Part shown: positions 2,587 to 62,857 of the stretch, piece after piece | Position numbering within the stretch: the first letter of the stretch is position 1 | Layout: each line of letters opens with the position of its first letter | Origin: an uncultured Christensenellaceae bacterium | Lineage (GTDB): Bacteria > Bacillota > Clostridia > Christensenellales > UBA3700 | Length of the DNA: 64,000 nucleotides | Assembly (NCBI GenBank): GCA_944380355.1 | Contig: CALWHJ010000007.1 | Span: forward strand, 8,497 to 72,496 | Direction: 5' to 3' | Position numbers and translations under genes: made by a program | The notes under the pieces: generated by a model | The model's database searches: none | What the model was told of the DNA's origin: nothing | Seen by the model: the letters and a program-made list of their open reading frames with translations, nothing else

Positions 2587-5500
2587 TTATTTGAAGTAGT
2601 CTACGCCGCTCTCGAAGAGTTTCATATCGTAATTACCCTCGACGTTTTTGTAGAGGTCCTTATCCAAACGCTCGATGTGTCCCATCTTGCCGAGCACTCT
2701 GCCGTCGGGAGAGATAATACCTTCGATAGCGTACATGCTTCCGTTGGGGTTGAAAGGAGACTGCATAGTAGCGTTGCGCGTCATATCCACGTACTGCGTA
2801 GCTACCTGACCGTTTTTGATAATCTTGTCAAGCTCTTCTTTGCTAGCGACAAATCTTCCCTCGCCGTGGCTTACGGGTACGGTGAATACGTCGTCTACGC
2901 GCACCTTAGAAAGCCAAGGAGATTTGTTGGTAGCAATTCTTATGTTGACCATAGTGGACACGTGGCGGGATATGTTGTTGAACGTGAGCGTAGGCGCTTG
3001 GGGCGTCTGCTCTCTTATATCGCCGTAGGGTACGAGACCGAGTTTGATAAGAGCCTGGAAACCGTTGCAAATACCGAGCGCAAGACCGTCTCTCTTATAG
3101 AGAAGTTCCATAACAGCCTCTGCAATACGGGGATTTTTAAAAGTGGTTGCGATAAACTTACCGCTGCCGTCAGGCTCGTCGCCGCCGCTGAATCCGCCGG
3201 GGAAAGCGATTATCTGACTTTGAGAAAGTGCCTTGACGATTTCCTTTGCGCTGTCCTCTATGTCTTTGGACGAACGGTTTTTGATTACCAGAATATTAGC
3301 CTTTGCTCCCGCTCTCTCGAATGCTCTTGCCGTATCGTATTCGCAGTTTGTTCCGGGGAATACGGGGATAAATACCTGAGGTTTGACTATATTGCGTGCA
3401 ACGTGAGGTTGTTTTCTTGCGCAGAATATGAGATTTTGCACTTCTCCGCTCGCGGGTGCGGTCGTGGGGAATACGTTGTCGAGCGTACCCTCGAAAGATT
3501 GCGCAGCAACCTCCATTTTGAGTTCCTTTCCGCAAAGGTCAGCCGTATGAGTTCCGTTGAGGACTGCGACAAGTTGAGCGTCAAACTCTTTGAGTTTGCC
3601 TATCTCGTCGGCAAGCACTACGAAGTCGCCGAATGCAGGCGCGAACAAATCTTCGGAAAGCTCGTTCCAGTCGGTACCTTCTTTGTTACCCATACAAGCC
3701 TTGAATACGCTTGCGACTACACCGCCCTCTTCAACTACGTTGATTGCCTTGATTTTGCCTGAAGCGCACTCGTCTTTGATTGCATCGTAAAGCGCGAGAG
3801 TTTTTGCAAAATCGGGAATACCGTATTCGTCCTTAGGTATAGCGATATGCCATATATTCTTTGCTCCCGACTTATAGCCGAAAGTATTGGTAATAATCTT
3901 GGAAGCCTTGTGTATGCCCATAGCGAAAGATATGAGCGTAGGAGGTACGTCGATATGCTCGAAAGTACCGCTCATACTGTCCTTGCCGCCTATCGCGCCT
4001 ACGCCGAAACCTATCTGAGCATAGAGCGCGCCGAGGAGTGCCGCAAGAGGCTGTCCCCATCTGTCCGCATCCTGATTAAGACGCTTGAAGTATTCTTGCA
4101 AAGAAAGTCTTACTGTCTTGACGTCTACGCCGCAAGCAACCTGCTTGGAGAGCGAAAGCAATATAGAATATATTGCGCCCGTAAAAGGAGAGGACGTCAT
4201 AAGCTGAGGAGAACAACCGTAAGTCGATACGGTAGCCGTATCCGTAAAGCCTTCTACGGGAGGCTTGCTTGCCATAGCTATTGCGGGAGTAAGCTGATAT
4301 TTACCGCCGAAAGGCATAAGTACGCTTGCCGCGCCTATCGTGCCGTCAAACATTTCTCCTAAGCCCTTTGTCGAGCATACGTTGAGACGAGAAAGCTCGC
4401 TGAGTATTGCTTGGTCAAATTCTCCCTTGTCGAAAAGCTGTTCTGTCTTTTCGTTGAGCTTGTCCATATAGTTACTTACGTTGTCGTCAACGTGAGCGTT
4501 TTGTCTTTGTTTTACGCCGTTGGTATCGAGGAATTTTCTCTTAAGGTCTACGATTACGTTGCCCGCGTAGAACATTCTCATTCTGCCGTTGTCCGTAACT
4601 TCTGCGACAGCCGTAGCCTGCAAGTTTTCTTTAGCGGAAAATTCTATGAATTTTTCCACGTCGTTTTTATCGAGTACGACAGCCATTCTCTCCTGAGATT
4701 CGCTTATCGCAAGTTCCGTACCGCTCAATCCCTCGTACTTCTTGGGTACTTTGTCGAGATAAATGTCGAGACTGTCCGCAAGCTCGCCGATAGCTACGCT
4801 TACGCCGCCCGCGCCGAAGTCGTTGCACTTGACGATAAGCTGAGCAACTTCCTTATTGCGGAAAAGTCTTTGAATTTTTCTTTCCGTGGGAGGATTACCC
4901 TTTTGCACTTCTGCTCCGCACACTTCTACGGATTTTTCGGTATGCGCTTTGGAAGAGCCTGTTGCGCCGCCGCAGCCGTCTCTGCCCGTCTCGCCGCCTA
5001 AAAGTACGATAATATCGCCCTTGACGGGTTTTCTTCTCACTACGTTTTCTTTGGGTGCGCCCGCAATAACGTAACCTGTTTCGAGACGCTTAGCGCGGTA
5101 ATTCTCGTGATACATCTCAGCTACCAAACCTGTGGAAAGTCCTATCTGATTGCCGTAGCTGGAATAGCCCGCAGCCGCAGTCTTTGTGATAACTCTCTGA
5201 GGGAGTTTGCCTTTGAGAGTAGTCGATATATCCTGCGTGGGGTCGCCGCTTCCCGTAACTCTCATAGCCTGATATACGTATGTTCTGCCTGAAAGAGGGT
5301 CTCTTATCGCGCCGCCGAGACACGTAGCCGCACCGCCGAAAGGCTCGATTTCCGTAGGATGGTTGTGAGTTTCGTTTTTGAACATAATCAGCCACTTTTG
5401 AGGCTTGCCGTCTACGTCTACGTCAACCTCTACCGAACAAGCGTTGATTTCGTCGCTCACGTCGAGATTGTCGAGTTTGCCCTCTTTTTTGAGTTTCTTG

Positions 5501-20226: not shown

Positions 20227-20239
20227 GTCGATAATCAAA

Positions 20240-20365
20240 TAATTCTTTGAGGGCAGGTGAAATTCCTCACCGGCGGTAAAGTCCGCAAACGCCGCAAATT
20301 TTTTATACGGCGCCGAACAAGTGTAATTCTTGTACCGACAGTATAGTCTGGATAGGAAAAGGATA
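20240..20365 (+). promoter_or_regulatory. FMN riboswitch (RFN element)
   Basis: Conserved RFN blocks are present: AGGGCAGGTGAAATTCC, ACCGGCGGTAAAGTCCGC and CCGACAGTATAGTCTGGATAGGAAAAGG. It lies immediately upstream of a RibU-type gene. The 3' strand of P1 overlaps the AAAAGGA RBS. Confidence 0.85.
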
Positions 20366-20370
20366 CTTTT

Positions 20371-21108
20371 ATGAACAATTCAATTTCTAGAAGCAAGTGG
20401 CTTGCTACCACGGCTATTCTTGCCGCTATGGCAAGTGTTCTGTATTTTTGGGAACTACCCGTACCCCTTATGCCGAGCTTTATACAGTTTGACTTTTCGC
20501 TGTTGCCTTGCCTTATAGGCAGCGTAGCGTTAGGTCCTCTGAGCGGAATTACGATTGCGCTGTTTAAAGACTTGATTCATCTTATATTCAAGGGTTTCGG
20601 CGCAACGGGCGGTATTGGAGATTTGGCAGACTTTTTCGTCTGCGCATCGATAATTCTTCCCTCTTCTCTCATCTACAAGAAAATGCCTAATATAAAAGGT
20701 CTTATCTTGGGGCTTTCGGTAGGCAGTCTAGTCAGCGGATTTTTCGCAGGACTTATTCTCAATGCGATTATCGTATATCCGCTCTACGACAAATTCCTCT
20801 TGCCTATGACGGCAATTATCGGTATGTATCAACAAATCAGACCTTCGTCAAACGGTCTTTGGGAAGTGCTTGCTATATTCAATATGCCATATACATTCCT
20901 AAAGTGCGCAATAATAAGCGTAATGGCGGTATTGATAGCAAAGCCTTTGCAAGGCGTGCTGTTAAAATATTCAAAACCCAAACAAGCACCCGACCAATCG
21001 TCTCTCGAAAAACAAGACGATGAGCCGTCAGACGATAACAACGGCGAGAATACCGCCGTCAAAAAACCCGCAAACATCGAAAACGACGAAAACGTAAAGA
21101 CAGTTTAG
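20371..21108 (+). CDS. ribU: ECF-transporter S component for riboflavin (RibU family) with a low-complexity acidic C-terminal tail
   Basis: 245 aa with about 5-6 TM helices. It sits directly behind the FMN riboswitch. The N-terminal pattern KWLATTAILAAMASVLYF resembles RibU. Confidence 0.8.
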   Translation: MNNSISRSKWLATTAILAAMASVLYFWELPVPLMPSFIQFDFSLLPCLIGSVALGPLSGITIALFKDLIHLIFKGFGATGGIGDLADFFVCASIILPSSLIYKKMPNIKGLILGLSVGSLVSGFFAGLILNAIIVYPLYDKFLLPMTAIIGMYQQIRPSSNGLWEVLAIFNMPYTFLKCAIISVMAVLIAKPLQGVLLKYSKPKQAPDQSSLEKQDDEPSDDNNGENTAVKKPANIENDENVKTV

Positions 21109-30625: not shown

Positions 30626-33600
30626 TTATTTTTTGTTGTCAAAACGGTTGAGAAACTCTTTTGCTCTGTCCTTTTCTCTCTGTATAAAGCCCTTTGTCTC
30701 TTTAAACAATGCCTTGAACGCTTCTATCTCCACGCGCATAAACGCCATTATAGGGATTATGCACAGCATAATGATTACGAGTTTTACCACCATATCGGGA
30801 TAGAGCGATACGAGCGTAAACATTTCGCTGAGGAAAGGATTGCTTACCGCGAAAATGAACGCTACGAACAAAAGCGCAAGCATAAATATCTTGTCTTTCG
30901 TGTAAGGCATACATACCTGCATAAGGACTATGAACGATACGCACGCCGTGATATAAACGCTCATCGTAGATATCTGAGGACTTACGTCAAAACCGATATC
31001 GTTGTAAATCCAACATATCAGCGTTATAGCAAACGCTACGGTAAGTCCCGCCGGCAACGCTCGCTTGAATACCTTGCTCAGGAAGTTGCCTTTTACGCGT
31101 CTGTCGTTAGGCTCGAGCGCGAGAATGAACGAAGGTATACCTACGAACAAAGTGTTTATCAACGTGAGCTGTATAGGCTCGAAAGGATACGTCGAAAGCT
31201 GGAATATAATAAGCAACAACGACAGTACCGCGCTGAACGTAGTTTTTACGAGGAAGAGCGAAGCCGCTCTCTCGATGTTGTTGATAACTCTTCTGCCCTC
31301 TGCTACTACGCTCGGCAAAGCCGAGAAGTCGCTGTCGAGAAGTACCAGCTGAGATACGTTACGGCTTGCATCCGAACCGCTTGCCATTGCTATCGAACAG
31401 TCCGCTTCCTTGAGTGCCATTACGTCGTTGACGCCGTCTCCCGTCATACCTACGGTGTGACCGTGCGCCTTAAGCGCGGCAATAAGTTCCTTTTTCTGCG
31501 AGGGAGAAACTCTTCCGAATACGGTATACTTCTCTGCCGCTTCGTAAATCTTATCGGGAGTATCCAAATCCACGGACGCGTCCACATACTTTTCTGCATT
31601 TTTAAGTCCCGCTCTTTCCGCTACCTTGGAAACCGTCAAAGGATTGTCTCCCGAGATAACCTTGAGCTGAACGCCCTGTTTTTCAAAATAATCGAAAGTC
31701 GCTTTCGCGGTACTTCTTATCTTGTCGCTCAATACTATAAGCGCAATTATCTTCATCTTCTCGGTAGACATATCGCCGTCTTTCAACACCTCGCCGGTCT
31801 TCACCAGTACAAGGACTCTGAAGCCCTGAGAAGCGTATTCCTTGACGTCGCGGTCAACCATATAATATCTGTCTTTGAGCACGAATTCGGGCGCGCCTAC
31901 GATAAACGTGCCTGCGTCCTTAAAACTTGCTCCGCTCCACTTTCTTGCCGACGAGAAAGGCATCAGTTTGAGCACCTCGTATCTCTCATTTGATGAGAAA
32001 TAATTAGCGCACGCCTCAAAAGTCGCGTTGTTTTGTCCGAGCGCGCTTACAAGATTTGCCATTATATCGTCTACCGAGCCGAGACGAGAAGAATATACGT
32101 GTACGTTTTCAACCTGCATCGTACCCTCGGTAATCGTACCCGTCTTGTCGAGACACAGCGTGTCTACTCTCGCAAGCGTTTCTATCGAGTACAAATCCTG
32201 TACGAGCGTACGTCTTTTTGCAAGACGAATAATACCCAAAGCCAGCGCGATTGACGTGAGCATTACCAGACCTTCGGGTATCATACCTATTACCGACGAA
32301 ACGGTAGCGGTAACGGCACTCGAAACGCTGGCAGCGTACGTCATATTAGTCTTGAACATCAATATTCCGAGAGGGAAAATGATAATCGTCGCGATACGGA
32401 TAATCCAGTTAATGGAGCGCATGAGTTCGGATTTTGACTTTTTGAACTTCTTTGCTTCACTCATAAGCTTGGAAGCATAAGTGTCGTCTCCTACCGCGAT
32501 AACCCTTGCCTTACACGTACCCGACTGCACAAAACTACCCGACATCATTCTGTCGCCGTTTTGTTTGTGGATATCGTCCTGTTCGCCCGTAAGAAGCGAT
32601 TCGTTGACTTCGCATTCTCCGTCGACGACGATACAGTCCGTAGGTATCTGACTTCCTTGTTTGAGAATTATTATATCGTCGATTACAATCTCGCTTGTGG
32701 GCAAACTGACCTTCTCTCCGCTTCTCATAACTTCGATAGACGGCGCGGATACAAGCGACAGCTTGTCGAGTGCGACTTTCGAACGTATCTCTTGCACTAT
32801 ACCTATTACGAGGTTGACGATTGCGATTATCGCAAACAACATATTCTTGACCTGTCCGTTGAAGATGAGTATCATCGCGGCAAGGAATACGTTGACGATA
32901 TTAAACAGTGTGAATATGTTGGTGGTAAATATCTTGAGATAGGATTTTGAGATTGCGTCGGACTTGAAGTTGACCATATTGCGCAATACTCTTTCTTCTA
33001 CTTGCTCTTTGTCGAGACCCGCATCAGGGTCGGCGTATACGTTGATAAAAGGCGTATCCTTGAGTGCTTTAGCCTTTTCCTTGTTTACGGCTCGCAAATC
33101 CTTATAGAGATTTCTGCGCTTTTTGCTCGTCTTTATCTTAGGCTGTTTTGCCTTCTTGTGTTTTTTATCCTCTTCTTTTTTGTCGTTTTGCTCGTCTATT
33201 TTTTCCATTTCGAGCGCAAAATTACTCTCGAAAGAAACTTCTCTCTCTTCTTCTGCCTGATTGTCGCCGTCTTTTTTGCCTTTTGACTTTTTGACGGCTA
33301 TGGTCTTGACTTCAAGAGTTTTTTCGGATTGAATTTTTTCGTGACTTTTCTTTGAAGCCTTGACTTCTTTTGACTTGGTCTTTTTGTCTGCGTGTTTTTC
33401 CTGCGCATTTTCCCCGTCGGCAATTTCCTGCGCATCTTCGACCTTAGACAGGGAATCTTCCTTGTCTTTTAACTGAGCGGGACCTCTATCCTGTTTTGAC
33501 AAAGCGGAAATTGCTTTGCCGCCGGATTTGCTGTCACCCCTATCCTTCGCCAAAACGTCTGACGCACTCAAATCGGCAAGGCTTTCGGGAATATCCGCAA

Positions 33601-44453: not shown

Positions 44454-46115
44454 TTATTTCATATTTCTGTTGATTGCCGATACGAGTGCCTTGACGCTCG
44501 CTTCGATAATATCGTTGTGAATACCAACGCCCCATACGATTTTGCCCGTCTTGTTGTCCTCGATACATACGTATGCAGCCGCTTGCGATTGCGATGTCTT
44601 GGAGAGTGCGTGCTCTTGGTATTCGACTATATGATAATCTATGTCAATAGCCTTTTTCAAAGCGTTGCTGACCGCGTCGAGTCTGCCGTTGCCGTGTGCC
44701 TCGGACGTGAAAGTCTTGCCGTTGTACTCAACGGTAATAGTCGTGTCGATACCGTCAATCTGCTTGTAGTGATGCTCTATGATATTCAAAGGCTTGTCGA
44801 TATTGACGTAGTTATCCTCGAATACCTTGTATACCTCGGAGGGCTTGAGTTCCTTGTGAGCGTGGTCGGATACGCTCTTTACCTCGTAGCCGAAAGCTTC
44901 GCGCATCTTCATAGGAAGGACTACGCCGAATTGTTGTTCCATCAAGAAACCTATTCCGCCCTTACCCGACTGACTGTTGATTCTTATTACGTCGCCCTCG
45001 TACTCTCTGCCGATGTCCTTGGGGTCGATAGGAAGATAAGGCACCGTCCAGTGGTCGGGATGCTTTGCCGTGCGCCACTTCATACCCTTTGCGATAGCGT
45101 CCTGATGCGAACCCGAGAATGCCGCAAATACCAATCTTCCCGAATAGGGCTGTCTTTCGTAAACTTTCATACCCGTAACCTTTTCGTATTCTTCGACTAT
45201 TGCGGGAATATCCGAAAAATCGAGTCCGGGGTCAACGCCGTGCGAATACATATTGAGCGCGAGAGTGATTATATCCACGTTACCCGTACGCTCGCCGTTG
45301 CCGAACAAAGTTCCCTCTATTCTGTCTCCGCCTGCCAAAATACCCAGTTCACTGTCTGCAATCGCACAACCTCTGTCATTGTGAGGGTGCAAAGATATAA
45401 TGAGGTTTTGTCTGTCAATCAGGCTCTTGCACATATACTCGACCTGACTTGCATAGATGTGAGGCATAGACATAGATACCGTTACGGGCAAGTTGATAAT
45501 GACTTTCTTTTCGGGGGTAGGTTGCCATATTTTGATAACCTCGTTGCAAATATCTCTCGCAAACTCCATTTCAGTACCCGTAAAAGACTCGGGAGAATAC
45601 TCGAACAAATACTCTCCTTCTGCCTTAGCGGCATATTCCATACAGAGTTTTGCGCCGAATTTAGCAATATCGATAATCTCTTCCTTGGACTTTTTGAACA
45701 CCTGTTCACGCTGAGCGTAAGACGTAGAATTGTAGAGATGCACAACAGCCCTCTTGACGCCCTTCAAAGCCTCAAAAGTCTTTGCGATAATATGCTCTCT
45801 GGACTGCGTGAGTACCTGTATCGTTACGTCATCGGGGATAAGATTTTTTTCAATCAAAGTCCTCACAAACGTATATTCCGTCTCGCTCGCAGCGGGAAAA
45901 CCTACTTCTATCTCCTTGAATCCTACCTTACAAAGGAAAGTGAAAAACTCCAGCTTCTGCTCGAGACTCATAGGTACAACCAATGCCTGGTTGCCGTCTC
46001 TCAAATCGACGCTGCACCATATAGGAGCTTTGTCGATATACTCTTTCTTCGTCCAGTCGTTGCACTCAAAGGGAGGCATATAATATCCTCTCGTGTACTT
46101 GTCAAAGTTTTTCAT
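44454..46115 (-). CDS. leuA: 2-isopropylmalate synthase (long LeuA type with C-terminal regulatory domain)
   Basis: 553 aa. DLRDGNQ and HPHNDRG motifs, plus a LeuA dimerisation/allosteric C-terminal region. Confidence 0.9.
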   Translation of the reverse strand: MKNFDKYTRGYYMPPFECNDWTKKEYIDKAPIWCSVDLRDGNQALVVPMSLEQKLEFFTFLCKVGFKEIEVGFPAASETEYTFVRTLIEKNLIPDDVTIQVLTQSREHIIAKTFEALKGVKRAVVHLYNSTSYAQREQVFKKSKEEIIDIAKFGAKLCMEYAAKAEGEYLFEYSPESFTGTEMEFARDICNEVIKIWQPTPEKKVIINLPVTVSMSMPHIYASQVEYMCKSLIDRQNLIISLHPHNDRGCAIADSELGILAGGDRIEGTLFGNGERTGNVDIITLALNMYSHGVDPGLDFSDIPAIVEEYEKVTGMKVYERQPYSGRLVFAAFSGSHQDAIAKGMKWRTAKHPDHWTVPYLPIDPKDIGREYEGDVIRINSQSGKGGIGFLMEQQFGVVLPMKMREAFGYEVKSVSDHAHKELKPSEVYKVFEDNYVNIDKPLNIIEHHYKQIDGIDTTITVEYNGKTFTSEAHGNGRLDAVSNALKKAIDIDYHIVEYQEHALSKTSQSQAAAYVCIEDNKTGKIVWGVGIHNDIIEASVKALVSAINRNMK

Positions 46116-46162: not shown

Positions 46163-46408
46163 AAAAAGTCCCTTGCAAACAGCAAGAGACGAAATCTATC
46201 CGTGGTACCACTCTTTTTCGTATCTACGGCCAACACCGATTTACGATACCTTGACGCTATAACGGGCTTACCCGACACTCTCTTACTGTGATTGGGAGAG
46301 GCGACTCAAAGGCGAGTTGGCTTATCTGTCCTGTTGTCTCACACCTACCGACAACTCTCTGCAAAGACTTCAAAGTTAGTATTCCTTGTCGTAGTCTTTA
46401 GATATTAT
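46163..46408 (-). promoter_or_regulatory. T-box riboswitch leader of leuA
   Basis: The minus strand contains an AGAGA-type motif near the 5' end and the T-box sequence AAAAAGAGUGGUACCACGG. The terminator GUCUCUUGC-uguuu-GCAAGGGAC-UUUUUU follows (46163-46190). The 5' arm of that terminator can alternatively pair with the T-box. Confidence 0.8.
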
Positions 46409-46414
46409 GGATAT

Positions 46415-46443
46415 ATTCTATAACAAGTTTTTTCTTTTGTCAA
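46415..46443 (-). promoter_or_regulatory. Sigma-A promoter of the leuA T-box leader
   Basis: Minus strand reads TTGACA - 17 nt - TAGAAT. Confidence 0.6.
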
Positions 46444-46453
46444 GCATTTTTTT

Positions 46454-46770
46454 GCGACCGCATATATCAGCACATATTTGCGATTTTGCGCGAGCAGTTA
46501 CACTCGGTCACGTACGGCAAGTACGCTCCGCTCGTGAACTCTCTTCAAAATCGCAACTCTGCACTAATCTCTGCGGTCGCAAGTCATTTAATTTTTGCTA
46601 GTTTGGAAAAAGCAAAAATCGCACCTCTCTCCGCGCTCGCACTAAGTTTTATTATCTTCATTTAGATTTTGAAAGCAGAATACTTTATTTTGCGGTCGCG
46701 CCTTTCGTTTTTTTTACAATTTAGTATGCGCCTGTCGCGCTCGTCTGGAAAAGACAAACTCTGCACTGTT
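46454..46770 (+). repeat. Left inverted copy of the modular GC-rich hairpin repeat (complement of 51459-51753)
   Basis: 46488-46545, 46615-46642 and 46724-46766 match the reverse complement of 51662-51719, 51625-51652 and 51533-51576 respectively, in colinear order. A nested long hairpin is formed by GCGACCGCA (46454-62)/TGCGGTCGC (46572-80) and TTGCGATTTT (46478-87)/AAAATCGCAA (46547-56). Confidence 0.85.
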
Positions 46771-46776
46771 CGCTCA

Positions 46777-47183
46777 CCTCGACAAAATACCCACGCTTCC
46801 GAAGTGTCGAAAGCGTAAGGCAAAATGTCGGGTTCGCTCTATACCGACCAAACGAAACGGTGTATATTCGACAAGCGAATAAAACCGTTTGTCGGTACTA
46901 TCTTCAAGCGGATTACGGATTTGACAGCCTCGACAAAATACCCACGCTTCCGAAGTATCGAAAGCGTAAGGCAAAACGTCGGGTTCGCTCTATACCGACA
47001 AAGCCGTAATAGAGTGGTAAGGATAACGGCTTTTTGAGATTGATTGCGAAGGGCGCATACTTTGCGTATGTAACCGAGCAAGAATATCGCAATAAAAGGC
47101 GCTAGGCGTGCCGCTATATTACGGCGCAAACGAAACGGTGTATATTCGACAAGCAAATAAAACCGTTTGTCGGTACTATCTTC
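46777..47183 (+). repeat. Duplicated hairpin units A (72 nt x2) and B (57 nt x2)
   Basis: A1 46777-46848 vs A2 46928-46999 has 2 mismatches. B1 46849-46905 vs B2 47127-47183 has 1 mismatch. Each unit contains internal stems: ACGCTT...AAGCGT in A, and CCGAC(C)AAACG..AACGG...CCGTTTGTCGG in B. Confidence 0.9.
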
Positions 47184-47346
47184 GTGCGACCGCAGAGATT
47201 AATCGTTACTAACCACCACGCGAGCGCGGAGAGTGGTGTGATTTTGTGAATTTTAAGAGAGTTCGCGAGGGCGCGTACTTGCCGTACGTAACCGAGCGTA
47301 ACTGCTCGCGAAAATTCGCAAAGGCGCGCTGCTATACGCGCTCGCC
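47184..47346 (+). repeat. Internal direct copy (D1) of the modular hairpin repeat, flush with the DUF47 gene stop codon
   Basis: 47220-47346 aligns with 51627-51753 at about 90 percent identity by eye. It ends at 47346, one nt before the TAA stop (47347-47349, minus strand). Confidence 0.9.
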
Positions 47347-47958
47347 TTATAGCGAATTTAGGATATCAAGAAGATAATCCATCGCCACATCCGCCTCATC
47401 TGCCGTAGTATTCAAGTGACGGTAAACTTCCCTGTACTTGAAAATTGCGGATACGTTGTTGCTGTCAAAAAGTTTTGCAAGCGCTTTGTAATAGTTGGCA
47501 CCCATTTTGTTTTCGAGACTCTTGACCTTGATAGCCTCGTCCTTTGCGATTGCCTTGTGCTTTTCCATACTAGCTACGGCTTTCTGGATATGCTCGGTAA
47601 TCTCGTAGAGAATACCGACAAGGCGCACCATATCGGAATTAGGGCTGATTTTGAAAAGGCGCATTTCGTCAACCGCCGTCTTTGCGTAGTCGAGAATTTC
47701 GTCAAGCTGACGGGACAGGTCGAATATGTCGTTACGCTCCATAGGCGTGATAAAGGTACGGTTGAGTTCGTCGATAAGAATACGTCTTGCCATATCGCCT
47801 TCGTCTTCTATCTTGATTACCTCGTCACCGTATGCTTCGTGATTTTCTTCACCTACGCTGCTGCAATATTTGTACAGTGCTTCCATACCTCTTTTGGTAA
47901 TCTCGCTCTGCTTTGCAAGCAAATCAAAAAAGTTTACTTTTTTTCTGAAAAGTTTCAT
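47347..47958 (-). CDS. DUF47 / PhoU-like phosphate transport regulator (TIGR00153 family)
   Basis: 203 aa, all-helical. It follows a PiT transporter gene, the usual pairing for this family. Confidence 0.85.
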   Translation of the reverse strand: MKLFRKKVNFFDLLAKQSEITKRGMEALYKYCSSVGEENHEAYGDEVIKIEDEGDMARRILIDELNRTFITPMERNDIFDLSRQLDEILDYAKTAVDEMRLFKISPNSDMVRLVGILYEITEHIQKAVASMEKHKAIAKDEAIKVKSLENKMGANYYKALAKLFDSNNVSAIFKYREVYRHLNTTADEADVAMDYLLDILNSL

Positions 47959-51326: not shown

Positions 51327-51351
51327 TGTAAATCACTCCGAAATAAATACG

Positions 51352-51378
51352 CCGTCCCACTAAGTGGGACGGTTTTTG
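51352..51378 (+). terminator. Rho-independent terminator of the BclA-CTD gene
   Basis: CCGTCCCAC-taa-GTGGGACGG followed by TTTTTG. Confidence 0.85.
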
Positions 51379-51458
51379 TTTAGTACTCCATTTGTGTATA
51401 TGTTTCACCACTCTGTTTATCAACTTTGCTCTATAGTAATATTAACTATTACTAGCTA

Positions 51459-51753
51459 CGTGCAAGCGCGGAGATTGGTACAGAGTTGCGATTATAAATT
51501 CATTGCTAAACTTTGTGCAAGCGCGGAGAGTGGTGTAGAGTTTGTCTTTTCCGGACCGAGCGCGACAGGCGCATACTTTGCGTATGTAACCGAGCGCGAG
51601 TGTACCGCTAATATTACATACTTCGTGCGAGCGCGGAGAGTGGTGTGATTTTGCGAATTTTAAGAGAGTTCGCGAGCGGAGCGTACTTGCCGTACGTGAC
51701 CGAGCGTAACTGCTCGCAAAAATTCGTAAAGGCGCGCCGCTATACGCGCTTGC
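51459..51753 (+). repeat. Right copy of the modular GC-rich hairpin repeat (D2), flush with the spoIVA stop codon
   Basis: It contains three GTGCRAGCGCGGAGAKTGGT modules (51459, 51515, 51625) and the 127-nt block 51627-51753, which is shared with 47220-47346. It ends at 51753, one nt before the TAG stop of spoIVA. Confidence 0.9.
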
Positions 51754-53232
51754 CTATAAAAGGATGCACAAAACCCCACCCTTACCTTCATTGACAATGC
51801 GTGTAACCGTCTTGCGAAGCTTTCCTCTTACGTCTTCGGGCATTGCCATAAGCTTGTTGTTCAAGCCTTCTTTTGCGATTACGTTGAGAGACTTGCCGAA
51901 CATATTGGTATTCCAAATATCCTGACCGTCTTCGCCGAATTCGTCGAGCCATGCGCGAAGGTTGTCTTCGCTCTGCATATCGCTGTTGATTACGGGATTG
52001 ACTTCGGTTTCGACGTCAACGCGCATGATATGCATTGCGGGAGCGGACGCTTTGAGTTTTATGCCGTATCGCGAGCCTTTTTTGACGATTTGAGGTTGCT
52101 GAAGCTGTAAGTCGTCGAGCGTAGGCGTAACTACTCCGTAACCGTACTTTTCTACGTCCTCGAGAGCTTGTTTGACTTTGTTATACTTTTCCTTAGCCTC
52201 GGCAAATTCTTTGATATATGCGACAAGCTGACACTCGTCGGCAATCTCTACGCCGCACTGCATGGAAAGCACTTTGTAGAAAAGCTCGGGACGAGGCGAA
52301 GTCTTTATCATGCACTTGCCCGTGCCGTAATCTACGGATACCTGAGAATCTTTTTGCAAATATTCGTCGTCTTCGAAAAGGCTGACAAGACGCTTGTAGT
52401 CGCCCATGACCTTCATATCGTTGACTACCGAAACCACCTTGTCGATGATATGCGAAATAACCTCGCTCGTACGAGGCAATGCCTGCATCCAAGTAGGCAT
52501 ATCTATATCCACGCTTCTCAAAGGGAATTGCAAGAGTACGCTTTCGAGAAGTTCCGTCATCTCCTGAGCATTCATTTCCTGCACGTTTTTAAGAAGTACG
52601 GGTATACCGTATTCGTCGGCAAGTCTGTCGCGAAGTCTTATGCTTTCGGTATCCTGAGGATGGCGGGAATTGAGGAGCATTACGAAAGGTTTGTCGAGTT
52701 CTTTCATCTCTCTCACTACTCTTCTCTCGGCTACTTCATATCCCTCTCTCGGCAAATCGAGAACAGAGCCGTCGCTGGACACTAATACGCCGATAGTAGA
52801 ATGGTCGGTGATTACCTTGCTTGTGCCGTATTCAGCCGCCTCGGTAAAAGGCATTTGCTCATCACTCCAAGGTGTATTGACAAGTCTGTCATTGTCCCCC
52901 TCTTCAAAGCCCTGCGCTCCCGCAAAGGGATAGCCGACGCAATCGACGAGTCTCAATTTTGCTCTGCACTCGGGAGCAAGCTCGACTTCTACTCCGCCGT
53001 CAGGCACGAATTTGGGCTGAGTGGTCATAACCGTTTTGCCGTCTGCCGACTGAGGCAATTCGTCGATAATTCTCTCCTTATGGTAGTCCTCTTGGAGATT
53101 AGGCAATACCATAGTCTGCATAAACTTAGTGATAAAAGTCGATTTACCGCTTCTTACGGGACCGACTACTCCTATATAAATGTTTCCTTGAGTACGTGTA
53201 GAGATATCCTGATAAAGATTTGATTTTTCCAT
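51754..53232 (-). CDS. spoIVA: Stage IV sporulation protein A (spore coat morphogenetic ATPase)
   Basis: MEKSNLYQDISTRTQGNIYIGVVGPVRSGKSTFITKFM closely parallels the B. subtilis SpoIVA N-terminus. Start at ATG 53230-53232 with a GGAGGAG RBS. The ORF track extends to 53274. Confidence 0.9.
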   Translation of the reverse strand: MEKSNLYQDISTRTQGNIYIGVVGPVRSGKSTFITKFMQTMVLPNLQEDYHKERIIDELPQSADGKTVMTTQPKFVPDGGVEVELAPECRAKLRLVDCVGYPFAGAQGFEEGDNDRLVNTPWSDEQMPFTEAAEYGTSKVITDHSTIGVLVSSDGSVLDLPREGYEVAERRVVREMKELDKPFVMLLNSRHPQDTESIRLRDRLADEYGIPVLLKNVQEMNAQEMTELLESVLLQFPLRSVDIDMPTWMQALPRTSEVISHIIDKVVSVVNDMKVMGDYKRLVSLFEDDEYLQKDSQVSVDYGTGKCMIKTSPRPELFYKVLSMQCGVEIADECQLVAYIKEFAEAKEKYNKVKQALEDVEKYGYGVVTPTLDDLQLQQPQIVKKGSRYGIKLKASAPAMHIMRVDVETEVNPVINSDMQSEDNLRAWLDEFGEDGQDIWNTNMFGKSLNVIAKEGLNNKLMAMPEDVRGKLRKTVTRIVNEGKGGVLCILL

Positions 53233-61753: not shown

Positions 61754-62248
61754 TTACGCTCTTACGATTTGTTTGATTACGATAGGGTCGTAAGGCACGT
61801 CATCGTAATATCCTACGCTTACTGTCTTTACTTTTGAGATATCTACGGCAACTTTTATGCTCTCCTCGTCCGTAAGTTCGCCGAAAGCTGCATATTGTCC
61901 GTCAAGAAACGAGCAATCTTCTACACAAATAAAAAACTGCGAAGAAGCACTGTCGGGTACGTTGGTACGCGCCATAGAAAGAGTACCTACCTTGTGCTCT
62001 AAAGGATTGTTTACGCCGTTGGCTCTGAACTCACCCTTTATTGCTTTTGTGTCCTTAGGACACAATGAAGCGTCCATACCGCCTCCCTGAATCATAAATC
62101 CGGGAATTACTCTGTGAAAAATAAGTCCGTTGAAAAAGCTTTTGTCGATAAGCTTGAGAAAGTTATCGACCGTAACGGGTGCCGCACTCTCGTCCAAAGA
62201 AGCGTTCATAACCCTGCCGTCTGTAAGTTGAATTTGTATTTTTACCAT
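61754..62248 (-). CDS. ppiB: Cyclophilin-type peptidyl-prolyl cis-trans isomerase
   Basis: 164 aa. FHRVIPGFMIQGG and SQFFI motifs. Confidence 0.9.
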   Translation of the reverse strand: MVKIQIQLTDGRVMNASLDESAAPVTVDNFLKLIDKSFFNGLIFHRVIPGFMIQGGGMDASLCPKDTKAIKGEFRANGVNNPLEHKVGTLSMARTNVPDSASSQFFICVEDCSFLDGQYAAFGELTDEESIKVAVDISKVKTVSVGYYDDVPYDPIVIKQIVRA

Positions 62249-62569
62249 ATATCCTCCGAGTCGCAGCCTAAAGGCTTTGACTAATTTAGCTTGGATTTTA
62301 TTTTTGTACAGTCTAGCAACTTCATCTTGAACTTTAAGTTCTCAAAATTTGTCCTGCTATCACTTTTTCGTTTTCTTCTGTTCCCCCTAAACTCTATCAT
62401 CTCTACCGCAAAACGCGGCGAGAGCATGGCGATAAGCGCGAGATTTTTTGATTATTTTCGTCGAGGAAGAAGAGGTAATACTTGCCGTATTACGATGATG
62501 ACGAGTCGAAAAGAGCGGAAAAGATACGCTTAGCGACTGCTTGAGCCGCGCTTTTGCGGTATCAAAAAA

Positions 62570-62857
62570 TCAATACTGATAATCTACGCTGTGAGATTTC
62601 TCGACTACGCTTTTTACGTATTCCATTACGGGCAAATGTACGGGGTGTACTCTGTATTTTTCCAAATCTTCCATTGATTTGAATTCGCACACGAGTACCA
62701 CGTCAAAACTTCTGTCCGACTTAATCTCGTCTACTCCCGACTGTATGTCGACAAGCAAATCAATCTTGCCTTTCATAGACAAAAACTTTTCTTTCAAAGC
62801 CTGCTTGTTGATTTCGGTAGGCTCTTTGAGTTTGTACATAACGATATGCTTTACCAT
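62570..62857 (-). CDS. Dabb (stress-responsive alpha/beta barrel) family protein
   Basis: 95 aa. The MVKHIVMYKL start and the size fit the Dabb domain. Confidence 0.75.
   Translation of the reverse strand: MVKHIVMYKLKEPTEINKQALKEKFLSMKGKIDLLVDIQSGVDEIKSDRSFDVVLVCEFKSMEDLEKYRVHPVHLPVMEYVKSVVEKSHSVDYQY

Follow-up and report, generated by a model that had tools for sequence, protein, structure and literature searches.

A modular, strain-variable long-hairpin repeat at gene boundaries of an uncultured Christensenellaceae bacterium

Here we describe a new family of intergenic repeats, of a familiar bacterial kind, in the genome of an uncultured Christensenellaceae bacterium. Five small hairpins in the window (the whole 64-kb stretch of DNA that was analysed) are the apices of paralogous units of ~128 nt and not independent hairpins. 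On balance we lean towards reading the repeat as a non-coding, interspersed element like BOX, ERIC and REPIN, kept as a folded single strand and spread via a single-stranded DNA (ssDNA) intermediate. Its behaviour is closest to BOX, whereas its size and fold are closest to ERIC and REPIN. A sequence-only reading of the same DNA had presented the motif as a recurrent small hairpin with a folded RNA or ssDNA structure under selection; we describe it here not as a stand-alone small RNA hairpin but as the apex of a modular, strain-variable interspersed repeat.

Self-comparison of the window showed that the intergenic regions 46400-47346 and 51380-51754 are made of ~128-nt units, which are 67-94% identical to one another and each of which also matches its own reverse complement (BLAST, self-comparison). 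Positions 47220-47347 and 51627-51755 share 94% identity, 46447-46581 holds the same unit type on the opposite strand, and the units at 47001-47128 and 51515-51626 are more divergent. When the 64-kb window was searched with a covariance model of the unit (R1), full units were found in two intergenic regions only. The repeat units and the two other hairpin repeats lie as follows.

46453..46580, minus strand: unit C, full, subtype 2 (GCGACCGCA/TGCGGTCGC), tip 46511-46525; R1 146 bits versus 52 on the other strand
46606..46649, minus strand: left-arm fragment (half-unit), from BLAST and inverted-repeat matches to 51508-51552 and 47220-47245
46723..46766, minus strand: D-type left arm, truncated at the tip and abutting element 2; 93% identity to the reverse complement of 51533-51577
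46767-46910 and 46928-47002 + 47120-47188: element 2, a second repeat family with two hairpin modules
47001..47128, plus strand: unit E, subtype 3 (GCCGTAA/TTACGGC), tip CATAC-TTTGC-GTATG at 47056-47070; R1 55 bits
47184..47219, plus strand: truncated left arm (GTGCGACCGCAGAGATTA) with a TTAC-containing linker into unit A, from the sequence and a flank table
47220..47346, plus strand: unit A, full, subtype 1 (GCGAGCGCG/CGCGCTCGC), tip 47274-47288; R1 140 bits
51458..51514, plus strand: 55-nt half-unit of the repeat family, a left arm with linker ATAAATTCATTGCTAAACTT; one to three tandem copies in other strains
51515..51626, plus strand: unit D, tip CATAC-TTTGC-GTATG at 51572-51586
51627..51754, plus strand: unit B, full, subtype 1, tip 51682-51696; R1 145 bits versus 46 on the other strand
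62404..62562, plus strand: element 3, a different long-hairpin repeat with arms CCGCAAAACGCGGC/GCCGCGCTTTTGCGG; -63.9 kcal/mol versus -52.4 on the other strand

The genes neighbouring these repeats include leuA behind a T-box, a PhoU_div/PHO4 pair, DUF3810 and SpoIVA, the homologues of which indicate an uncultured Clostridia host, possibly one of the Christensenellales. In unit D, the TTAC-N9 leader of the following unit takes the place of the right basal arm. This leader, in which TTAC stands 9-10 nt upstream of the hairpin base, is present in 12 of the 18 subtype 1 and 2 units, all leaders being related by descent, and it recalls the ends of IS200/IS605 elements; no TnpA gene is known from this host. 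Conserved A/T-rich motifs resembling a -10 box (TGCTAAACT, TATAAAT) lie 5-9 nt upstream of many units. On the plus strand of the 55-nt half-unit, an extended -10-like TGCTAAACT directly precedes the next unit, and on its minus strand a promoter-like TGCACA-17-TATAAT (51491-51519) has 10 of 12 matches.

We searched the window for the tip as a pattern. CRTAC-TTKSC-GTAYG has five exact matches, namely the five tips listed above, compared with 0.09 expected from dinucleotide-preserving shuffles. The generic form of the pattern (a perfect 5-bp stem with a TTKSC loop) matches seven sites against 0.59 expected; one of these, GTCTT-TTTGC-AAGAC at 32212-32226, is unrelated to the repeats and is probably a chance match, which fits the ~0.6 expected. 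Six copies had been reported from the bare sequence, and five of them lie where they were placed. The sixth, GTAATAC-TTGCC-GTATTAC, is really at 62475-62493 instead of 62486-62504 and forms the tip of element 3, which has no R1 match and shares only TAC-TTGCC-GTA with the main family.

The sequence-only reading had further proposed a conserved loop on a stem with compensatory changes, and neither part held up beyond the window. Over strain variants and other loci we counted nine 5-nt loops (TTGCC, TTTGC, TAGAT, TAAAC, TTGTC, TAAGC, TTACC, TTAGC and TAGGC), making the loop the most variable part of the structure; a table of loops per strain also ruled out that the loop is homogenised within each genome. 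The tip stem is CGTAC/GTACG in all fetched loci, with CATAC/GTATG in one subfamily, and in the six-pair tip helix of 17 distinct units only one pair varies, being G-C in 13 and A-U in 4. The compensatory changes thus amount to one pair in two states with the A-U state confined to one subfamily and, since that state is carried by related repeat copies, the switch represents a single event. With the loop so variable and the stem almost invariant apart from this one switch, the covariation proposed for the tip is therefore weak. Constant half-sites around a spacer of fixed length and variable sequence would suit a duplex-DNA operator, CGTAC-N5-GTACG, bound by a dimeric protein. We consider such an operator very improbable, as it leaves the 128-nt hairpin, its strand asymmetry and the covariation of distant stems unexplained, and the sites have no consistent position relative to promoters.

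It is the whole unit that carries the structural signal. A longer imperfect hairpin around the tip had been noted before, and its ATTGCGA...TCGCAAT stem is indeed present at 47043-47093, the full length being ~128 nt. For unit A the fold is a single continuous hairpin at -71.8 kcal/mol (z -7.2), compared with -47.0 kcal/mol (z -2.2) for its complement, the values being -36.8 versus -26.8 when DNA parameters are used. From base to tip, the fold comprises a 9-bp basal stem, a 3x3 internal loop GAG/ATA, a 9-bp stem with U.G wobbles, variable stems and the conserved apex GG(C/A)G-CGTAC-N5-GTACG-T(G/A)ACCGAG. The 9-bp basal stem acts as a terminal inverted repeat whose sequence differs per subtype with its complementarity kept (GCGAGCGCG/CGCGCTCGC, GCGACCGCA/TGCGGTCGC, GCCGTAA/TTACGGC and GCCCTTG/CAAGGGC). 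Fixed across the subtypes are the GAG/ATA loop, the apex and the wobbles U15.G117, U18.G114 and G58.U74.

We then scored the pairing across 17 distinct units. Standard pairs made up 89.1% of cells and 25 of 49 pairs had changed on both sides; pairing fell to 29-49% in a control in which the 3' partners were slid by 1-3 columns. The covariation score of 0.342 compared with 0.158 in shuffles and was matched by none of 500, and RNAalifold, run on 12 units, gave compensatory changes in 17 of 36 pairs. These counts have to be read with the relatedness of the copies in mind: the 17 units belong to few subfamilies, one of which supplied the structure used in the test, and independent compensatory events are therefore far fewer than the cells counted. 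G.U cells outnumber A.C cells by 104 to 21 in the consensus structure and by 91 to 13 in well-aligned helices. Moreover, the same strand is the better-folding one in each of the 17 units, its advantage averaging -20.7 kcal/mol under RNA and -9.1 kcal/mol under DNA parameters, and R1 scores 140-147 bits on the well-folding strand against 46-60 on the other. This polarity is kept by copies in both genomic orientations and is therefore a property of the family, not of a local mutation bias; the well-folding strand is the C-rich one in ~11-12 of 15 units, which are not independent of one another. Together, covariation, G.U excess and one-strand folding support the maintenance of a single-strand structure rather than of plain duplex sequence. 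Selection on a folded RNA or ssDNA, which had been argued from the tip, finds its support in the 128-nt hairpin and not in the tip.

Complementarity might, however, persist with no selection on structure at all, if all copies descend from a palindromic founder and their arms were held complementary by template switching or gene conversion from one arm to the other, so that the apparent covariation would be inherited subfamily structure. There are indeed few subfamilies, many compensatory cells record an event that others also record, recombination clearly exchanges modules, and related sequences can exceed every shuffle without any structure. Yet conversion from arm to arm should erase mismatches, whereas almost every subfamily retains the same G.T wobbles, and in the well-aligned helices changes on one side only gave G.T in 91 cells and A.C in 13. 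In addition, four or five unrelated basal stems all pair around fixed loop motifs, and the same polarity is seen in element 3 and in two loci described below (L054 and L010). An origin of the pattern by copying alone is therefore unlikely in our view.

The units are placed in a distinctive way with respect to genes. The last unit of each cluster has its 3' end towards a gene boundary, and this end is often the source of the convergent gene's stop codon, the unit end ...GCC(T)TA being TAG or TAA on the opposite strand. Units are flush with, or supply, the convergent stop codon in five cases (PhoU_div, SpoIVA, DUF711, SpoU methylase and RecR); the codon is supplied by the unit for SpoIVA, RecR, SpoU methylase and, in some strains, PhoU_div. 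In the window, the 3' end of unit A lies 1 nt from the TAA stop of the convergent PhoU_div gene (47347-47958, minus strand; Pfam), and the last C of unit B with the following TA makes up the TAG stop of the convergent SpoIVA gene (51754-53232, minus strand; Pfam, translation). Placement at a gene end recurs in L054 (a gene), in L010 (an OmpA-like gene) and in element 3, where an A6 run separates the 3' end from the stop codon of the convergent Dabb gene. The C-termini of genes with repeat-supplied stops are unchanged compared with a sister species. Such stop codons have a precedent in Firmicutes, since BOX repeats (boxA-boxB(n)-boxC) of S. pneumoniae encode the stop codon of 36 genes without truncating the protein (Croucher et al. 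2011, PMC3049150).

Other units face promoters or start codons. In two cases (leuA and an acyltransferase-like gene) the unit is followed by an A-tract and the -35 box of a co-directional promoter; for unit C, an A7 run follows the 3' end, 10 nt upstream of the -35 box of the leuA T-box promoter (promoter scan). Two units have a start codon within 8-10 nt downstream. Lying flush with gene ends and just upstream of promoters, the hairpins could be taken for intrinsic terminators or insulators. A terminator scan at the units found no U-tract after the hairpin on either strand, the 3' flanks being A-rich; an A-tract in place of a U-tract, the two units directly before start codons and the canonical terminators already present in the same spacers (at 51351-51378 and within element 2) make this function highly improbable.

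Several observations were made beside these gene boundaries. Directly downstream of unit C is a near-consensus promoter, TTGACA-17-TAGAAT (46443-46415, minus strand), and the T-box leader at 46182-46401 (minus strand, 99 bits) precedes leuA (44454-46115). One module of element 2 resembles an intrinsic terminator on the minus strand (46819-46790, 46970-46941). The start codons that follow units at 8-10 nt belong to unrelated SpoU-type methylases, at L051 1118-1131 and L040 10367-10377, and in both the subtype-3 unit is joined to the start by a linker AA(W)AGAATA; no Shine-Dalgarno sequence lies between unit and start, and a GGAG stands upstream of the unit.

To compare strains, we retrieved nine variants of the locus from ENA metagenome assemblies via the exact PhoU_div protein. 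The flanking proteins are identical and the spacers variable, at 538-1358 nt between PhoU and leuA and 358-839 nt on the SpoIVA side. Each spacer is a mosaic of full units, 55-nt left-arm half-units (one to three in tandem), linkers and two other hairpin repeats; the clusters are intergenic, hold units in either orientation and are nested with these two other families. In the sister species (SpoIVA 82% identical), gene order is kept and the spacers are short; R1 found no unit at the syntenic sites, where the positions of the stop codons are unchanged. L051 and L052 differ by the tandem duplication of a unit with its linker, by the presence or lack of a 78-nt module and by a swap of unit type at one and the same site. 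Chimeric and truncated, poorly folding units are common. Most strain differences look like recombination between modules.

The other two repeats also vary. Each module of element 2 comes and goes between strains independently of the other (L051 versus L052). Element 3 is polymorphic in the Dabb-ppiB spacer (L041-L046): its arms are duplicated in L041 and L045, and L046 has a 48-nt short hairpin without the inner ~113 nt, a part bounded by a CTCGC direct repeat. Unit E is inserted in element 2 (intact ..ccgac-caaacg.., interrupted ..ccgac[AAAGCC..GGCG]caaacg..), and at this sole clean nested insertion no target duplication was seen. Conversely, one strain (L026) has a copy of element 2 within the tip of a unit. 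TA follows many units, with a matching 5' TA only inconsistently. Among the strain variants we found no clean pair of filled and empty sites for a single unit; the fetched loci showed neither a transposase or RAYT gene nor a parent insertion sequence, and their gene tables (~150 kb of host genome) list no Y1_Tnp gene. A composite transposon bounded by the 135-nt inverted arms 46447-46581 and 51626-51760 was considered and rejected, because the genes between the arms are syntenic in the sister species. A CRISPR-like array was likewise dismissed, as the 'spacers' between its 28-nt repeats, at a spacing of 55 or 110 nt, are identical linkers.

Strain variation also bears on a further reading, in which the units are functional structured RNAs, either small RNA genes in many copies with a promoter in the 5' linker or cis-acting UTR elements. 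A protein would then bind the apex and the GAG/AUA loop, and repetition and strain variability would be secondary. The covarying stems, the conserved internal loop, apex and wobbles and the one-strand fold with RNA parameters all agree with this, as does L054, in which entirely different stems bear the apex and GAG/AUA loop. The -10-like motifs just upstream of the hairpin base would make transcription of the units themselves possible, and the two units that end 8-10 nt before start codons must belong to those mRNAs. No terminator follows the units, however, and their orientation to neighbouring transcription is mixed, with the weakly folding strand in the mRNA beside stop codons. Poorly folding chimeric or truncated units are frequent, there is no Rfam match, and both presence and unit type vary between strains beside the same housekeeping gene, which is hard to square with a fixed regulatory role. 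We therefore regard structured RNAs as a genuine but minority possibility.

The reading that we prefer is that of a non-autonomous BOX/ERIC/REPIN-like element. The units would spread and be reshuffled by way of a folded single strand, most likely ssDNA on which an enzyme acts, and recombination between copies would reshuffle them as well. The apex and the GAG/ATA loop may serve as the recognition features, whereas the basal stems would need only to pair. Effects on neighbouring genes, such as supplied stop codons and structured UTRs, would be by-products.

Known repeats each share part of this picture. Like BOX (PMC3049150), the family is a Firmicute intergenic repeat that is modular, has tandem sub-modules, is extensively base-paired and varies between strains. 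As in BOX, the repeat often overlaps the extreme 3' end of a gene and supplies its stop without truncation, a likeness in behaviour. Unlike in BOX, the unit here is a single continuous 128-nt hairpin, clearly strand-asymmetric, in which the apex and the GAG/ATA loop are conserved, and its host belongs to the uncultured Clostridia, at 45% G+C, whereas that of BOX is S. pneumoniae. With REPINs and REP-BIMEs, which RAYT transposases mobilise (Bertels & Rainey 2011, PMC3116915; PMC3733652), it shares ~100-nt hairpins predicted for ssDNA or mRNA, compensatory changes, extragenic mosaic clusters, an unpaired 5' tail, differences at the strain level and, at the one clean nested insertion, the lack of a target duplication. 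In REPINs, however, the ends are conserved (REPs with GTAG or CGTC tags) and the middle is free, whereas in the present family it is the apex that is conserved and the ends that vary; unit ends have neither GTAG nor CGTC as a consistent tag. In MITEs and REPINs the ends are what the transposase recognises, and ends that covary around a conserved apex are more typical of a structured RNA. The hosts in a 2013 survey of REPs (Di Nocera et al., PMC3733652) come from other phyla, and its text never names Firmicutes or Clostridia.

ERIC and Correia elements are imperfect palindromes of ~127-150 bp found in transcribed intergenic DNA in either orientation, with orientation-dependent effects on mRNA (summarised in PMC3049150). 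The units here are imperfect palindromes of similar size, also intergenic and in either orientation. ERIC and Correia elements belong to Proteobacteria and have defined terminal repeats and TA target duplications; a TA duplication could not be shown for the units. Integron attC sites, for example the 123-126-bp repeats of Vibrio cholerae, are imperfect palindromes of ~125 nt that fold on one strand only. They consist of paired boxes with an internal loop and a variable distal part and lie after a stop codon, with the active strand antisense to the gene. The units resemble them in their size, their strand-biased fold, their paired boxes with an internal loop, their variable part and their position adjoining stop codons. 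An attC reading was nevertheless rejected: the units have no RYYYAAC/GTTRRRY core sites, their ends being GCGAGCGCG...CGCGCTCGCC, the neighbours are housekeeping genes that are syntenic in the unit-free sister species, and no integrase was seen.

Database searches agreed with the view of the sequence-only reading that the motif belongs to no known RNA family. In Rfam 15 the units had no match at the gathering score, and even at E values up to 10 the segments 46380-47400, 51330-51780 and 62240-62620 returned only noise. Plasmid and phage BLAST gave no match to the repeat, nor did viral contigs scanned with the correct patterns. As for its being a known element, the repeat is of a familiar kind but matched no catalogued one.

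R1 also identified full units in five additional intergenic regions, from this genome or from close relatives of it. Further loci were reached by searching a protein collection with spurious open reading frames translated from the repeat, which yielded six proteins and four new loci. The loci are as follows.

L040: units adjoining DUF711 and SpoU methylase
L051 and L052: units before a trmL-like gene and an acyltransferase-like gene
L053 and L055: units adjoining RecR, on the scaffold of the window and ~20 kb to its left
L054: a contig from another sample, in which all stems differ, with the basal stem UUAAACGCA/UGCGUUUAA

In L054 the GAG/AUA loop and the 29-nt apex are identical to those of unit A, and the polarity is kept (-57.4 versus -46.0 kcal/mol). 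A more distant likeness was found in L010, a metagenome-assembled genome of Sandaracinaceae, where a 135-nt hairpin at 3924-4049 (minus strand; R1 E = 0.019; -81.3 versus -72.4 kcal/mol) has the apex CGAGGGAGCGCTAC-TTCCC-GTAGCGTGACCGAGAGCG on a stem 1 bp longer; its 3' end overlaps the TGA stop of the convergent OmpA-like gene. The scans of genome and metagenome contigs had used TACTTNNCGTANNGTRACCGAG, which has one base more than the matching part of the element, and nearly all their matches were chance ones within a conserved coding sequence; L010 surfaced through this pattern, whose extra base fits its longer tip stem, and the correct apex pattern is TACTTNNCGTANNTRACCGAG. We take this cross-phylum likeness, a single instance, as a lead.

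If the lead is followed, the apex GAG-CGG-A-GCGUAC-N5-GUACGU-GA-CCG-AG with its long hairpin might be a strand-specific RNA or ssDNA 'gene-end' element with a trans-acting partner, shared by Clostridia and Myxococcota. We think this rather unlikely; were it true, the family would be a widespread element at stop codons, on the antisense strand, instead of a selfish repeat specific to one lineage. A real cross-phylum apex would point to a conserved recognition module.

Hairpin repeats have been well studied in Proteobacteria and streptococci and hardly in uncultured gut Clostridia. The present family is an unusually clear case of single-strand constraint, with its covarying stems and its fixed wobbles and internal loop, and it combines this constraint with a content that turns over very fast from strain to strain and with a recurrent position at stop codons. 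Its clusters generate spurious open reading frames, could mislead searches for RNA motifs and could serve as strain markers.

Some smaller observations complete the survey. A metagenome contig (L022) has a similar apex, GCTAC-TTCTC-GTAGCGTGACCGAG, and in L016 a similar apex occurs without the hairpin. Downstream of SpoIVA in the sister species (L034, 11590-11625), a terminator hairpin, GGAGCGTAC-CTTGCGA-TACGCTCC, resembles the apex GGAGCGTAC-TTGCC-GTACG, which may be a coincidence or a hint at the origin of the apex. Elsewhere in the window, an FMN riboswitch (20239-20367, plus strand, 98.7 bits) lies upstream of the open reading frame 20371-21108. Finally, runs of N at L053 9826-9924 and L055 21056-21155 are scaffold gaps that fall inside repeat clusters, from which it follows that the repeats break metagenome assemblies.
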